34,286 nt of DNA. Source: a virus (lineage: Duplodnaviria; Caudoviricetes). Under the pieces are notes generated by a model. The model saw only the letters and a list, made by a program, of their open reading frames with translations, was not told the DNA's origin and ran no database searches. Shown piece after piece: positions 3,445-18,984 of this stretch; the stretch's first letter is position 1; each line of letters begins with the position of its first letter. Location of the stretch: positions 1 through 34,286 of IMG/VR virus record IMGVR_UViG_3300038825_001186; one strand, 5' to 3'. A program made the position numbers and the translations under genes.

Positions 3445-5733
3445 CTATTCTTCGTTAGCTGTGTAAGCAGCTGCAGCTGCACCAACGCCGACAGGGTATA
3501 ATATCGGTGCAATACCTGCTAATAAATCGCCACTTTCAGGCTTTTCTTTACGCAAATTTTCGTATTCAAATAGCTTCTTACGGTATTCTTGATTGTTTTC
3601 AATCAACTCAGCTTTTTTCTTGATTAATCTTTTTAAATTGTTTTCGTGATATTCTTTTACTTGTTGGTAATTGACTTTATCATATTCACGTTTAGCAAAT
3701 TTCAAATCTTGACTATTGCTTTTTATGGCTGCATTTATCGCATCTATTTCAGGAATCGCTGTTTCCATACTTTGTAAATCCGACTTAGCTTTTCTCTTTT
3801 CTGCTGCTAATCCTTTTGGCGCATCTTGGGGGTCAAATGTTGCATACCTGCTTCTTATTTGAGAAGGATCAAAAACCACATAGATATCAGTCACACCTGC
3901 CCCATCTGAGGTATTTTTAAAAATTGCACCATCATAACCGCCAGCTTCTGCCGTTGCTAACAATTCATTATATGACACATCTCTATATGAATCTCCTTCA
4001 AAATCACGCACAAATGGATTTGTTATTTGCAATTTAACCGGCATAATATTTTCGCCTAAACCACCGCCAATATCTCTTTTTCTTACTTGTCTTTCTAAAT
4101 AATCTTTCTTTTCTAATTCAAAATCTTGCAACTCTTCTTCTAAATACTTGACAGCGTTTTTATCACCTAACGATTTTGCGCGCTGTATTTGTTCTTTTCT
4201 GTTGCTTATTTCAGCGTCAAAATATTCTGAATTTTTATCTGCAAAAAAACTTTCATATCGTTTCTTATCTAATTTTTCTGCATCAGCTAAATCTGCATAT
4301 ACTGTAGCGGTTTCTGGATCAGCAGAAAAAAAGAATCCTCGTCGCGCGCTTGGTGCATCTGTCGTTGCTCCTAGCAATCCCGGATCAAATGACTCGATAT
4401 TGCCTTTTGTGCCATGAAACGCATCTATGTCGAATCCCTGTTTCACCGCTCGATCAAGACGCGCTTTTTCTGCAACATCTAATTGGTCAACAAAATCATT
4501 GTCCAACGTTCGTAATTCTAAAACATTTTCTTGTATTGCTAAATCATACAGTTTTTTGGCTGGCCCTTGACCTGACAACTCGACATCATCAGCAGCAATG
4601 AACTCATCTGATAGTTGCCTTAAAAGTTCATACTCTGTTGTTTCGCCGTTTTTGAATTGATTTAGGATGATGTTAAATCTGTATTGCTCTTCTTCTTCTG
4701 GTATTATTTCTTGTATTTCTTTTCTAATCTTTTCTGTTTCCGCATTAGATTCTGCTATTTTTGCTTTAACTAATGCGCCAGGCGTTTCGCCGGCTGCAAT
4801 TTGTTCTTGTGCTAACTCTACATTGCGCCGCCCTCTGTCCGTTATTGCAGGTTTAGAAACATTGGCCGTTGTCTTTTGCATCTGCCGGGCGCGCGCGTTT
4901 ACGTCAATTATTTCTGCGTTTTTCAGATTGTCTATGATCTGTGGAAAACTTTGAGACAACTCTTTCACTACATCGCCATATTCTGACCTACTGATATGTG
5001 ACATTGGCCCTTGTTCGTCTACTATTGTGCCTTGCCACTTACCTTTTTCTTTTGCCGACTTTGTTAAAAGTAACTGAGCCGGCGCACTCCCATCAGATCG
5101 CATATTAAATTTGACGCGTGCAGGTGCTGGCGTTGTTTCGTTTACAAACTTTGCTAATTCATTTTGTCTTGTTCTATACTGTGTTGCTTCAGCTAACAAA
5201 TCATCTTTTAATGGCCCATCTTCCATTTCTGCAAGAACTGAATCATAAAAATCATTGGTTGGTTTTGACGCATCAACAATATCCTGTGCTTGCTTCGACA
5301 TCTTTGGCATCTTGCTCATCATCGCCGCTGCGCCTATGCCGCCCATAAACTTGCCGGCTTTCCCTACCATCGGAAAAGCATCTTCTACGCCTATAAATGC
5401 GCCTGCCCCCTTGTCTAAAATATCTTGCTCTAATCCCCGACCCAATGCGCTTGCCACTGCGCCAGGCTGCTCAGTAACCGCAGAAACGATGTCGGGTAAT
5501 GTGCGTCTTGCTTGCCGGCCTAACTGCTCTGCCTTGTCCAGCTGACCAATCGACCCAACGACATCAACGCCCGTCTGTATCCCTTCGCCTATAGACTTAG
5601 CTACGCCGCCCGGCGTTTTCAGTATGATCGCTTCTAACAATCGCTGTAAACGCTCTTGCTCGTCTGTAAGCGGTTGCATGCCACGATTGCCAGATGCAAA
5701 TGCCGGCGTTATGTCACCGCTAAATCGGTTCAT
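3445..5733 (-). CDS. 762-aa protein with a C-terminal ADP-ribosyltransferase-like domain (ART-PolyVal-like)
   Basis: Motifs AFHGT...FDP, GFFFS.DP..A..YA, NIMPVKL.I.NP, GYDG.IF.N, YVVFDPSQIRSRYATFDP. Start is coupled to the portal stop (TAATG). Confidence 0.75.
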   Translation of the reverse strand: MNRFSGDITPAFASGNRGMQPLTDEQERLQRLLEAIILKTPGGVAKSIGEGIQTGVDVVGSIGQLDKAEQLGRQARRTLPDIVSAVTEQPGAVASALGRGLEQDILDKGAGAFIGVEDAFPMVGKAGKFMGGIGAAAMMSKMPKMSKQAQDIVDASKPTNDFYDSVLAEMEDGPLKDDLLAEATQYRTRQNELAKFVNETTPAPARVKFNMRSDGSAPAQLLLTKSAKEKGKWQGTIVDEQGPMSHISRSEYGDVVKELSQSFPQIIDNLKNAEIIDVNARARQMQKTTANVSKPAITDRGRRNVELAQEQIAAGETPGALVKAKIAESNAETEKIRKEIQEIIPEEEEQYRFNIILNQFKNGETTEYELLRQLSDEFIAADDVELSGQGPAKKLYDLAIQENVLELRTLDNDFVDQLDVAEKARLDRAVKQGFDIDAFHGTKGNIESFDPGLLGATTDAPSARRGFFFSADPETATVYADLADAEKLDKKRYESFFADKNSEYFDAEISNRKEQIQRAKSLGDKNAVKYLEEELQDFELEKKDYLERQVRKRDIGGGLGENIMPVKLQITNPFVRDFEGDSYRDVSYNELLATAEAGGYDGAIFKNTSDGAGVTDIYVVFDPSQIRSRYATFDPQDAPKGLAAEKRKAKSDLQSMETAIPEIDAINAAIKSNSQDLKFAKREYDKVNYQQVKEYHENNLKRLIKKKAELIENNQEYRKKLFEYENLRKEKPESGDLLAGIAPILYPVGVGAAAAAYTANEE

Positions 5734-11545: not shown

Positions 11546-11574
11546 TTGACTCAATAGTCCTATAGGGTTATATT
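11546..11574 (+). promoter_or_regulatory. Sigma-70-type early promoter
   Basis: TTGACT-17 nt-TATATT; palindrome CCTATAGG (11559-11566) in the spacer is a candidate operator. Confidence 0.7.
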
Positions 11575-11807: not shown

Positions 11808-12073
11808 CGAAACCCTGCCCCCACTGCACCAATAATCTCTACATCTGGCCCAGATCTGCCGATTGGATCTGCCAAGACGGTGCGCGCTGCGGCCACACCG
11901 AACGTTCCAGTGCAGACGAATTGGTCGAGTATATCGCGTATGTGACCAAACGCATCGACAATGCCAGATCTGCCACTGAACCATGCACCACGCGCATTGA
12001 ATCACTCACGCGCACACTGAACACCGCAATCAATAAACACATAGAACTTCAACGCACGGCTGTAGCAGCGTAG
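11804..12073 (+). CDS. Zinc-finger hypothetical protein (89 aa)
   Basis: GGAG RBS, ATG 11804; CPHC...C....C motif followed by a helical region. Confidence 0.7.
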   Translation: MTKPCPHCTNNLYIWPRSADWICQDGARCGHTERSSADELVEYIAYVTKRIDNARSATEPCTTRIESLTRTLNTAINKHIELQRTAVAA

Positions 12074-12425
12074 TGCGCGTAGTAAATGCGTAACTGGTCG
12101 GTAAGCATTAGCAGACGGCAGCGGTTACGCATGATGGGCGGCTACTGTGGGGTTTGACCAAGCCGCAACCCAGTCGAAACAAGCGCGAGGGGTGGTCAAC
12201 GGTTCGATGCCTGAGCCGTAAAGCAGCGCGCAAAGTCAGTGAACGGCATCTGTATAACTGACCAAACATACGAGCGACTCAACGTGACGAGCAATATCAC
12301 AGCGATGGACAGCGTATTGGACAAACGGCTACTCCAGCAATCTAACTACAGATTGGTGGGGGTAGTATCGCCGTATGCAACAAAACAAGACGATCTAACG
12401 ATCTGAGCAATATAAAAAGCACTAC
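12070..12425 (+). ncRNA. Putative large structured non-coding RNA or structured origin
   Basis: No plus-strand ORF of 60 aa or more in an otherwise tightly packed operon; about 9 identifiable helices, an enclosing 7-bp helix and two loop-mediated pseudoknots (see findings). Confidence 0.65.
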
Positions 12426-12445: not shown

Positions 12446-12991
12446 ATGCCAGTAAAGATCCACGGACGAGAATACGCAACGGTAGCAGAGCGGATCACTG
12501 CCCTGCACGCTGCAACGAAGGGGCAGTACACGATAGTAACAGAGATAGTCAGATGGGAAGATGCAGTAGTCGTAATACGCGCAACATTAACTATACCTGA
12601 ATGCGGTAGCTACACCGGCCATAGCTACGAAAAGGAAGGATCAACGCAAATCAACAAAACCTCTGCACTTGAAAACTGCGAGACATCAGCCATAGGTCGC
12701 GCATTGGCTGCAGCTGGATATGGCGGCTCAGAATACGCATCAGCTAACGAGGTTTCCAACGCGATCCACCAACAGCAAAACGGCAAAAGCAACGGCCACC
12801 ATAAACCGCCGGCAGACCCTAAAGCTGAGTTTGAGCGCATGGTGAAGGATCTAAACGTTGACAACAAAACAATGAGAGAATGTTTGGATTATCACCAATG
12901 CGTGGATTTAGTCAGCGTGCCGGAATCAAAGCGGCGTGAGTTTTACAAAGATTTGGCCCTAACCACACAAACCGAAGAGGTAAACGCATGA
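12446..12991 (+). CDS. Putative single-strand annealing protein (Sak/Rad52-like)
   Basis: G.EY..V.ER...TEI...A...TGH..E....[20 protein letters not shown] pattern; directly upstream of ssb. Confidence 0.65.
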
Positions 12992-13383
12992 GCGGCGTAA
13001 ACAAGGTCATTCTCGTAGGCAACCTGGGGAACGACCCCGAAATAAAGCAGACAGGCAACGGCACTTCCCTTGCCAACTTTTCTGTTGCTACCAGTGAAAG
13101 CTGGACAAAGGACGGCGAACGCCAAGAGCGCACGGAATGGCATCGTGTGACCTGTTGGGGCAAACTGGCAGACATCGTTGGGCAGTATGTAACGAAGGGC
13201 AGCAAAGTCTACATCGAGGGCAAACTGCAGACGCGATCCTGGGAGCAAGACGGCCAGAAACGCTACGCCACTGAGATTGTCGCGCGTGACCTGCAAATGT
13301 TGGATAAATCCGGCAACGACAATGGACAACCCAACCTGACCGTTGCCAGACCCCCGGTAAGCGACGACGACCTACCGTTTTAA
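12988..13383 (+). CDS. ssb: Single-stranded DNA-binding protein
   Basis: [36 protein letters not shown]; acidic DDDLPF tail. Confidence 0.97.
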
Positions 13384-13473: not shown

Positions 13474-13878
13474 ATGCACATAGGTAACGGATTCCTACGA
13501 CAAACAGCTATGGTTTTCACACTAAAAACAATCATACCCACACTTAACCAGTATTCGGCTCATGAGCGCACGCATCGGCATCGCGCAGCTGCGGTTAAAC
13601 GCAACACCGAGACATCGCTTGCCATCGAAATGCGCGCACAGCACTCCACCCCTATTACTGACTACCCTATCAACATCTCTTATCACTGGTATGTCCGAAA
13701 CCGCCGCACAGACAAGTCAAATATCGCATTTGGTCAAAAATTCGTTGAAGATGCGCTGCAAAAAGCCGGCATACTTCGCAATGATGGATGGTCAGAAATC
13801 GAATCATTCACCCACTCGTTTTCTGTAGACAACAACGACCCACGATTAGAGATCAAACTGACGAAGGCAACAGGATGA
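13474..13878 (+). CDS. rusA: RusA-like Holliday junction resolvase
   Basis: PTLNQY and R.D..N....KF..DAL..AGIL.NDGW catalytic pattern. The start may be ATG 13510. Confidence 0.8.
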   Translation: MHIGNGFLRQTAMVFTLKTIIPTLNQYSAHERTHRHRAAAVKRNTETSLAIEMRAQHSTPITDYPINISYHWYVRNRRTDKSNIAFGQKFVEDALQKAGILRNDGWSEIESFTHSFSVDNNDPRLEIKLTKATG

Positions 13879-14417
13879 AAACATACAGCACACAAGCAGA
13901 CCTGAGAGCCGCACTAAAGGCCATGCCAATCAACCAGCTGGTCGCACGCTGCGTCTATTACCAACTAATCAATGGTGTCACATACAAACCAAACACGCGC
14001 AAAAGAAAGGGATCTGCGGATAATGTCATCAGCGTTAGCATACCCGGACACGACGAAGGAATCGGAATCACAGGACAACTATTTGACTCTGCCCGTGAAA
14101 AAGCTGTGGCCCGAACTCAGCTTGAGCGAACACGAGACAAATCTCGCGCGGATACACTCCGCAGCATCGAGTATAACGCCCGAAGATACCGAGTTGCAAC
14201 ACCCGTTACTGTCGCTTTACTCCGGGTTGCAGATGCTATCGACGGGGAAATTGTCGCTGACGGAACAGCAGTTGAACGCGAGTTGGCAACTATTGATGCA
14301 GTTAGCGGAAGAGGAAATAGCACGCCTAACCCAAGAACGGAAAGAGCGCGAGGCACGAAAGCAATACAAGCCAGCCGCCGGCGTAGAGATCACGCTCCGC
14401 TTGCCGCCACCAGTTGA
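13875..14417 (+). CDS. Hypothetical protein
   Basis: ATG overlaps the rusA stop (ATGA); open for 180 codons; overlaps the next ORF extensively. Confidence 0.55.
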   Translation: MKTYSTQADLRAALKAMPINQLVARCVYYQLINGVTYKPNTRKRKGSADNVISVSIPGHDEGIGITGQLFDSAREKAVARTQLERTRDKSRADTLRSIEYNARRYRVATPVTVALLRVADAIDGEIVADGTAVERELATIDAVSGRGNSTPNPRTERARGTKAIQASRRRRDHAPLAATS

Positions 14418-14568
14418 ACTGATTGATACATCACGCGGCCTATATAAGGAACTTATTGGTGCAGGGTATACCTACAATTTTGACCGGCAGCTGTGGCGCG
14501 CGTGGGCCACTGACCGATCACGCCAGGTAAAAGAATCGCTCAAATACCAACAACAAAAACTACTGTAA
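13972..14568 (+). CDS. Hypothetical protein (start uncertain, possibly MQLAEEE near 14296)
   Basis: Stop is coupled to the sigma-factor start (TAATG); the C-terminal half looks protein-like. Confidence 0.5.
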   Translation: MVSHTNQTRAKERDLRIMSSALAYPDTTKESESQDNYLTLPVKKLWPELSLSEHETNLARIHSAASSITPEDTELQHPLLSLYSGLQMLSTGKLSLTEQQLNASWQLLMQLAEEEIARLTQERKEREARKQYKPAAGVEITLRLPPPVELIDTSRGLYKELIGAGYTYNFDRQLWRAWATDRSRQVKESLKYQQQKLL

Positions 14569-15317
14569 TGAACAAAACCACACCCCCACTGCCAATTGAA
14601 GAAGAGCGGCAGCTATTAAAACGCTTCCAAGAGACGAACGATGAGCGTGCTATTGAGCAGGTAATCGCCGCCAATACGCCACTGGTCATAAAGATCGTGC
14701 ATGAGATGTGCTCCAAGAACCATGACGACTACATTGCAGCCGGCAGAATCGGCTTGTTTAGAGCAGCGCAGCGGTTCGATCTGTCGTTAGATATTCGTTT
14801 TGTCAATTACGCCCATCACTGGATTCGCAAAGAGATCCGCGACCAACTGCATGACCAGCGTATTAAGATTCCTGCTATAATACAGCACGACTTCGCACGC
14901 GCACACAACACGATGGGACGGTGCGGTGATCCTGCACCACCAGAGGGATACACCGACGAATACAAACGTGCCTGGACAATACACGCCATGCGCCACGCCA
15001 CATTGCATATAGGCGATAAAACAGATGCCACGCCCGAATACGATATACCTGACGAACAACCGAATGCGTTAGACAAACTCTGCGCGTTGAACAGAGAAGA
15101 CGTTTTACAGCATTTAGCTGACAACCTCGATCCACGCACAGCCGATTGCATCGCGCGGTATTTCAACATTATTCCCAATGATGAAAAATGCACTATGCAA
15201 ACGCTGGGCGATGAACACGGAGTGTCACGCGAGGCCATACGCCAGACGATTAAAAAAGGTCTTACAAAACTCAAGTTTTCTATGCGCCACAACAACCGAA
15301 TTAATGAACATATCTAA
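14568..15317 (+). CDS. RNA polymerase sigma-70 family factor
   Basis: Region 2: N.PLVIKIV, DYIAAGRIGLFRAAQRFD...RFVNYAHHWIRKEI. Region 4 HTH: TMQTLGDEHGVSREAIRQTIKKGLTKLK. Confidence 0.92.
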   Translation: MNKTTPPLPIEEERQLLKRFQETNDERAIEQVIAANTPLVIKIVHEMCSKNHDDYIAAGRIGLFRAAQRFDLSLDIRFVNYAHHWIRKEIRDQLHDQRIKIPAIIQHDFARAHNTMGRCGDPAPPEGYTDEYKRAWTIHAMRHATLHIGDKTDATPEYDIPDEQPNALDKLCALNREDVLQHLADNLDPRTADCIARYFNIIPNDEKCTMQTLGDEHGVSREAIRQTIKKGLTKLKFSMRHNNRINEHI

Positions 15318-18910: not shown

Positions 18911-18984
18911 TGGTGGCGAGGCGTGGAGTCGAACCACGATTCCCAGGAAATGAACCTGATGAGTTACCGTTACTCTACCTCGCG
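18911..18984 (-). tRNA. tRNA-Met (CAT), initiator-like
   Basis: CGCGAGG TA GAGT AACGGTA ACTC A TCAGG TTCATTT CCTGG GAAT CGTGG TTCGACT CCACG CCTCGCC A CCA: full cloverleaf with encoded CCA. Confidence 0.92.

Follow-up and report, generated by a model that had tools for sequence, protein, structure and literature searches.

How does a phage replicate when no initiator gene can be recognized in its genome, and what fills the gap in its early operon? The genome in question is the 34,286-nucleotide (nt) virus record IMGVR_UViG_3300038825_001186 (Duplodnaviria; Caudoviricetes), which was analyzed as a whole and is called the window here; it has direct terminal repeats and was matched in marine DNA runs. 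The gap runs from the end of a small open reading frame (ORF) at 12073 to the start of an annealase-like protein gene at 12446. No initiator, primase, helicase, or polymerase was detected among the window's 40 main ORFs (PHROGs and Pfam) or, in a looser scan, among the extra ORFs. This agrees with an original prediction made from the letters of this DNA, which had seen a genome without an initiator and had placed in the gap a large structured RNA, possibly an R-loop primer or origin. Here, we describe the gap as a member of a family of structured RNAs with guide-like repeats, and comparison of these sequences tips us slightly toward the view that a persistent R-loop at the element's own 3' end would take over from a protein initiator and form the phage's origin of replication.

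Structure of the gap element

Folding of the gap region alone beat shuffled controls only modestly (plus strand, z = −1.87, equaled by 6 of 100 shuffles; minus strand, z = 0.11), and its 3' domain did so more strongly (12263-12412; z = −3.34); the decisive support for an RNA element came from comparative data. In an alignment of 67 long-form relatives, the window not included, 88% of cells pair. The covariation score was 0.742, versus 0.210 for shuffled and at most 0.144 for slid controls, with the qualification that the scored pairs were picked from the same alignment and that related sequences are not independent. Mutual information recovered helices P1, P2, P3, P4, and P5 and three pseudoknots (PK) as complementary pairs. 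Family helices contain 101 G-U against 12 A-C combinations and loop L3 is a GNRA loop in 57/67 relatives, both of which fit a plus-strand RNA, the strand originally proposed. Each of the six reading frames of the gap holds 3 to 8 in-frame stops, and a frameshifted or other protein-coding gene was therefore rejected. We conclude that the gap almost certainly holds a real RNA structure. Covariation shows its 5' 180 nt folding into a compact knot, and motif correspondence with relatives suggests where the 3' half lies (Table 1).

The segments listed in the original prediction are all present where it had put them, and both of its loop pairings are supported by comparison of homologues. Its count of two pseudoknots was too low, since PK0 (12118-21/12145-48) and PK2 (12183-87/12227-31) had been missed, giving four in total. 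PK0, PK1, and PK2 covary in the alignment (98%, 95%, and 98% of cells paired, respectively), with 22 to 27 double changes at the two central pairs of PK0 and both partners changed at each of the 6 PK1 pairs. PK3 was supported by permutation (mean complementary run of 4.87 nt versus 3.03 ± 0.10 nt in 300 permutations). PK0 to PK3 and P1 to P5 of the long form were all found in the window, and the close relative L062 carries compensatory changes in P2 (two), PK2, and P5. The outer pairings fared less well. An enclosing helix (12070-76/12419-25) is broken without compensation in two of the three close relatives covering the region, and its 5' arm folds instead into a local hairpin (12053-78). The proposed closure CATACG-a-GCGA/TCGCCGTATG is uncertain, being broken once in each of two of the three covering close relatives.

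Table 1. Features of the element and its operon in the window (percentages are alignment cells paired in the 67 relatives)
Feature	Position	Strand	Basis or remark
Candidate sigma-70 promoter of early operon; would read through the element	11546..11574	+	10/12 consensus positions
Whole structured element, P1 to end-site repeat, ~330 nt	12086..12413	+	Covariance model 12082-12280; nhmmer E 4.5e-10
P1	12086-96 with 12122-32	+	Family covariation; Rfam alignment
P1 loop conserved words	GGUCGG 12096-101; ACGGCAG 12115-21	+	
PK0	12118-21 with 12145-48, plus C12116-G12150	+	98.2% paired
P2	12138-43 with 12161-66	+	Two compensatory changes in L062; family covariation
PK1	12154-60 with 12193-99	+	95.2% paired; double changes at all 6 pairs
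P3	12168-71 with 12190-93	+	99.2% paired
Guide g1, GUCG, in P3 loop	12173-76	+	Window assignment by alignment
PK2	12183-87 with 12227-31	+	98.2% paired; alignment's strongest covarying pair; compensatory change in L062
P4	12199-205/12213-19	+	Part of 12199..12262 domain
PK3, P4-P5 loop-loop pairing	12206-11 with 12245-50	+	Permutation test
Conserved AAG(C/U)AG ahead of PK2 3' arm	12221-26	+	
P5	12235-40/12257-62	+	Compensatory change in L062
Inner copy X1, predicted guide	12275..12297; perfect 9-nt core 12289-97	+	17/26 identical to X2 unit; repeat D12
Long 3' hairpin P7	12325..12379	+	Fold; resembles P7 of long-form relatives; outer register uncertain
Site s1, GCCG	12370-73	+	Within 12325..12379 P7 region
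End copy X2, predicted DNA target	12391..12413; core 12405-13	+	Bottom strand would pair with X1
Annealase-like protein gene	12446-991	+	PHROGs/Pfam
SSB gene	12988-13383	+	PHROGs/Pfam
RusA-like resolvase gene	13474-878	+	PHROGs/Pfam

Relatives and the Rfam motif RF02932

At the gathering level, Rfam recognized only a tRNA in the window. Below that level, 12087-12193 matched RF02932, Betaproteobacteria-1 (30.9 bits; E 0.0014; gathering cutoff 49.4), and so the 5' part of the RNA is not, as had been supposed, unrecognized. P1, P2, and the loop motifs GGUCGG, ACGGCAGC, and CUGUGGG align with the window; in the third hairpin region, the window skips model positions 78-116 and carries long-form P3, PK2, P4, and P5 instead. 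The one other Rfam match up to E 10 was a chance microRNA. Transfer-messenger RNA, RNase P, group I introns, and small ribozymes gave no Rfam or ARAGORN match, as had been anticipated, nor did group II introns, GOLLD, ROOL, OLE, or raiA, and a blastn search of 50,697 phage records with the gap as query returned nothing.

Relatives were collected by pattern scans. Three conserved loop words yielded 96 viral loci and at least 120 loci each from genomes and metagenomes, and a scan anchored on 3' words yielded 120 further loci independently of the 5' core. Such pattern scans are rich in chance matches, which were dropped by a long-form profile at E < 1e-6; among the matches listed, 238 loci passed. 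Of the viral loci, 37 of the 96 and 96 of the 120 passed (short-form copies partly fail). The family has two forms, a short one (the Rfam form plus a 3' tail) and a long one of about 290 to 330 nt. The RF02932 cutoff was passed by 4/20 relatives tested. A covariance model built from 31 long-form 5' domains, none of them from the window's clade, found the window at 12082-12280 with 65.9 bits (E 7.5e-18, by rough calibration) and also found short-form loci at 35 to 49 bits. By these alignments, the window element is a divergent relative, about 330 nt long, of RF02932, whose model covers the first ~110 nt only.

The differences from RF02932 are nonetheless substantial. The 120-position Rfam model ends before PK2, P4, and P5, both guides (see below), and the 3' hairpin, and the long-form copies in satellites and in Paracoccus phage Shpa receive no Rfam match at E 0.1. 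RF02932 is typed as a gene for a small RNA. The carriers found here are phages, prophages, and capsid-forming satellites, and what was observed suggests that the RNA acts in cis on DNA. The motif reportedly comes from Weinberg 2017, in whose main text the name does not appear. Profile matches fall in Alphaproteobacteria, Bacteroidota, Acidobacteriota, and Bdellovibrionota records. Of the 23 near-complete genomes, 19 gave one copy by profile and none gave two. Six loci (L050, L057, L130, L133, L263, and L287) keep the 5' knot but differ in the 3' domains and lack GGCUCC.

The inner and end copies and their reading

Besides complementary pairs, mutual information (n = 67) revealed columns that covary by identity: an inner copy, X1, with an end copy, X2; a short word in the P3 loop, g1, with a site s1; and the pyrimidine preceding one flanking motif with that preceding the other. 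When X1 and X2 were defined by their flanking motifs only, 167 of the 238 loci had both with enough flank, and 98 remained after redundancy removal. Across 77 distinct 8-mers, the two copies agreed at six or more of eight positions in 92/98 cases and at all eight in 49/98, and the pyrimidine upstream was the same in 95/98. Observed identity was 5.8/7, versus 2.6/7 with shuffled partners. The mismatches run one way: 40 have G in the inner copy and A in the end copy, and 2 have the opposite arrangement (nominal P = 4e-10, without a model of relatedness). The base preceding X behaves alike (inner/end G/A in 83, A/A in 14, G/G in 1, and A/G in none of the 98). This asymmetry is most simply read as pairing of X1 with the bottom strand of X2, which would accept G-T but not A-C. 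On these comparisons, the RNA probably pairs with its own template strand.

Other readings of the repeat and its flanks were rejected. No complement of X was found inside the RNA above control (5.94 versus 5.84 ± 0.06), which leaves it without an internal partner; target-site duplication of an inserted hairpin would predict symmetric mismatches; the pairings GGCAGC-GCUCC and GUGGG-YYCAC give way to GCAG and CUGU segments that covary with each other; and no reverse transcriptase was present among 149 + 73 neighbor proteins scanned, against a template jump by such an enzyme. In the window, the perfect 9-nt repeat (at 12289 and 12405; spacing of 116) is by itself at chance level for 1.6 kilobases (kb), where 12 repeat families were listed, and takes its weight from its position. 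The flanking family words are replaced in the window by related ones, which one other phage (L044/L357) shares. The shorter word g1 equals s1 in 61/67 relatives, and in the window the two differ by one wobble-compatible U/C difference, which recurs unchanged in L062 and in the three relatives closest to the window. We regard this second DNA contact as less certain than that of X1 with X2, and g1 may be an internal switch.

The primer idea of the original prediction gains support from these guide-like repeats, which go beyond the evidence it had. In the mechanism we favor, plus-strand transcription within the early operon (the strand taken from the G-U bias; transcription weakly shown) would yield an RNA whose 5' 180 nt form the covarying knot. 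Behind RNA polymerase, X1 would anneal to the bottom strand at X2, as g1 probably would at s1, a step proposed because of the identity covariation and the G>A asymmetry. The hybrid would extend, and replication would be started, by analogy with ColE1, by host RNase H and Pol I or by PriA-type restart or, where encoded, by a phage primase-helicase. The annealase-like protein, SSB, and RusA might then support recombination-dependent replication. In two studies, contigs from RNA runs stop at 12421 and 12418, a weak hint for the end copy X2. X18 contigs are scattered over the genome (DNA or a whole transcript), and X20 has just one full-length piece within 20 kb, 12213-12418, but that run was found with this very stretch. 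Sigma-70-like sites in the promoter region occur at chance number.

The logic is that of ColE1: the rG stretch of RNA II must pair with a template-strand stretch for a persistent hybrid to form (PMC4412123), and the hybrid is cut by RNase H for Pol I (PMC4555960; for PriA, PMC3167613). A folded nascent RNA, an upstream segment on the template strand, and a persistent hybrid that becomes a primer would be common to both. To judge from its sequence, the element is nevertheless not a member of that group. It has a different fold and no sequence or Rfam match to RNA II or RNA I, its guides are a variable 8- to 9-mer and a 4-mer in place of a run of G's, neither Rom nor an antisense RNA I was seen for it, and it occurs in phages and is almost absent from plasmids. 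The plasmid motifs ARRPOF, GEBRO, and PAGEV are likewise structured and tied to replication regions, and ARRPOF lies within a gene-free region required for Rep-independent replication; the element has no Rfam match to them, and the accessible text describes no self-targeting repeat for them (PMC5737381). The T4 origins oriF and oriG are transcript-primed phage R-loops but consist of a promoter and an unwinding element, with no conserved RNA fold or guide described in the part of the source available (PMC4412123).

The 5' part was already catalogued as a motif of unknown function. In the open-licence literature we found no paper on the motif's function, and none describing the long form, the extra pseudoknots, the one-way wobble signal, the second guide, or satellites without replication genes. 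If real, the R-loop origin would assign a function to an orphan Rfam motif and show how many phages, as well as 11- to 12-kb satellites, replicate without a visible initiator gene; it would also be a second case, arisen on a separate design, of the ColE1 mechanism, here with a guide that varies in nature. Guide and target are defined at single-base resolution, and a cultured carrier exists in Paracoccus phage Shpa. A wider reading is possible but doubtful: such protein-free origins would be widespread, with a multi-pseudoknot RNA clamped on its own DNA at two sites by reprogrammable guides, replacing the initiator gene in phages and capsid-forming satellites and possibly catalyzing the starting cut.

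The same guide-template logic would serve for a switch of transcription in cis, in which the RNA on its template pauses, releases, or modifies the polymerase and controls downstream replication or packaging genes with no origin role. The hybrid inside RNA polymerase is 8 to 9 nt long, the size of the repeat, and the element often starts within 50 nt of the upstream stop codon and precedes an operon; put-type antitermination in HK022 offers a model of a similar kind. This alternative nonetheless strikes us as unlikely, given that in one genome (G018) what lies ahead of the element is no operon but a repressor gene convergent with it and that a switch leaves the frequent lack of replication genes in carriers unexplained. 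We give still less credit to a catalytic RNA docked on its own DNA, which would nick the DNA or cut itself and so make a 3' end for replication. Four pseudoknots would suit it, as would a near-invariant GGCUCC facing, at the border of the hybrid, a UCACC that is conserved yet an imperfect match, but GGCUCC is not kept in the window, part of its invariance stems from the search patterns, and no Rfam ribozyme family matched. Equally improbable is that the top strand folds as single-stranded DNA after unwinding or that the repeats are paired protein-binding sites. G-T wobble would produce the same asymmetry in DNA and the expression evidence is weak; however, the GNRA loop appears as GAAA, GCAA, GUAA, and GAGA variants, no GNA triloop occurs among 17 P7 triloops, and protein binding predicts neither the one-way G>A change nor 77 different words.

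Carriers and their replication genes

Near the viral loci, a helicase, primase, initiator, or RNase H gene was found close by in 10/25 and terminase or portal genes in 7/25; for the 3'-scan loci, helicase or primase genes were found in 6/33 and terminase genes in 13/33. In L046 the element stands directly before an RNase H gene and in Shpa directly behind the helicase-primase, with the small (terS) and large (terL) terminase genes about 5 to 6 kb away. In the accessible text of the Shpa paper, GC skew assigns a putative origin to the neighborhood of 0/38 kb, some 5 kb away from the element, of which that text makes no mention (PMC5135824). Of the 23 near-complete genomes, 10 were without a detected helicase, primase, or initiator: the window, G020 (left out), and 8 in which some of the proteins were scanned (142 against Pfam, 81 against PHROGs), in 6 of which no initiator, primase, or helicase was seen. 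Three proviral satellites of 11 to 12 kb (L483, L484, and L485; G001-G003) carry integrase, capsid, and terL genes, and no recognizable primase, helicase, Rep, or terS was present among the ORFs given. Four phages that share the annealase-like gene and lack the RNA formed a small control; among the three scanned (64/117 proteins), G042 and G043 have an initiator beside that gene and G041 (85% complete) has none. This control, the carriers in which no such genes were seen, the placements in L046 and Shpa, and the single copy per genome all speak for an origin. A dedicated link of the RNA to the annealase-SSB-RusA set, as originally proposed, found no support, since 11 annealase relatives (L101-L111) had no profile match and the carriers' neighbors vary. 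In a distance test, 8/13 genomes had a helicase, primase, or initiator gene no more than 2 kb from the element, a figure that is inflated because seeds were drawn from the same loci and that is not used as support.

Several observations weigh against an R-loop origin. Many copies lie just before terminase genes. A helicase, primase, or initiator is present in 13 of the 23 near-complete genomes, in 5 of them 6 to 14 kb away; an initiator was matched in part in G023 and a loader weakly in G010; and absence of genes from the window and carriers is a statement about profile searches covering part of the ORFs. In the window itself, X1 and X2 carry a 4-nt mismatch block and the family motifs GGCUCC (before X1) and YUCACC/YYCACC (before X2) are altered, and in the family g1 can pair with the P7 5' arm in 41/67 relatives (53/67 with G-U). 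GC skew, which the original prediction had named as a check, lends the origin no support: synonymous skew has the expected direction in 13/21 cases, that of this genome points the opposite way (−0.10), and the window's plot tracks gene direction. Lastly, 1 of 72,556 plasmid records matched one query.

That record, Agrobacterium pusense plasmid pC, has a full long-form copy (L482:6246-6527); it is a circular element of 32 kb that carries integrase and MobA. No typed replicon appears in the 22.5 kb of 32 kb viewed, and the annotation gives no replicon type. A packaging-specificity element, with the RNA marking or helping to cut the packaging site in place of the small terminase, is the least probable alternative, since terL lies within 2 kb in just 3/10 genomes and beyond 12 kb in 4/10 and the window and Shpa have a terS of their own (2.4 and about 5 kb away), although the element sits between head-tail adaptor genes and terL in at least 8/33 loci (satellite-like) and no terS was recognized in the three whole satellites.

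In the satellites, a conserved ORF of ~77 amino acids with no known family directly precedes the RNA (profile matches in 35 locus entries, some of them duplicates) and could encode a protein partner of the RNA, and an ORF of 152 amino acids is a possible terS candidate. In the Shpa record, the annotated hypothetical genes gp47 and gp48 overlap the element (L481:8952-9248; 33.0-33.3 kb of the record) and are probably not genes.

The window's gene set includes head, tail, terminase, and endolysin genes, two repressors, a sigma factor, SSB, and RusA. The product of the gene downstream of the element is a putative annealase; it matches only PHROGs of unknown function and, by features, PF27148 clusters resembling a double-stranded RNA-binding domain, and had no match in PDB. 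Two long overlapping ORFs in different frames lie 3' of RusA (13788-14417 and 13972-14568, plus strand) and have no family match; one of them could be an unrecognized replication protein. The sigma-70-type factor is encoded at 14568-15317 (plus strand), and the tRNA gene, with a CAT anticodon, at 18911-18984 (minus strand). Between the portal and capsid genes, a protein of 762 amino acids (3445-5733, minus strand) contains an ADP-ribosyltransferase-like domain (PF18760, ART-PolyVal; E 2e-9) and is possibly a virion-borne host-takeover enzyme.
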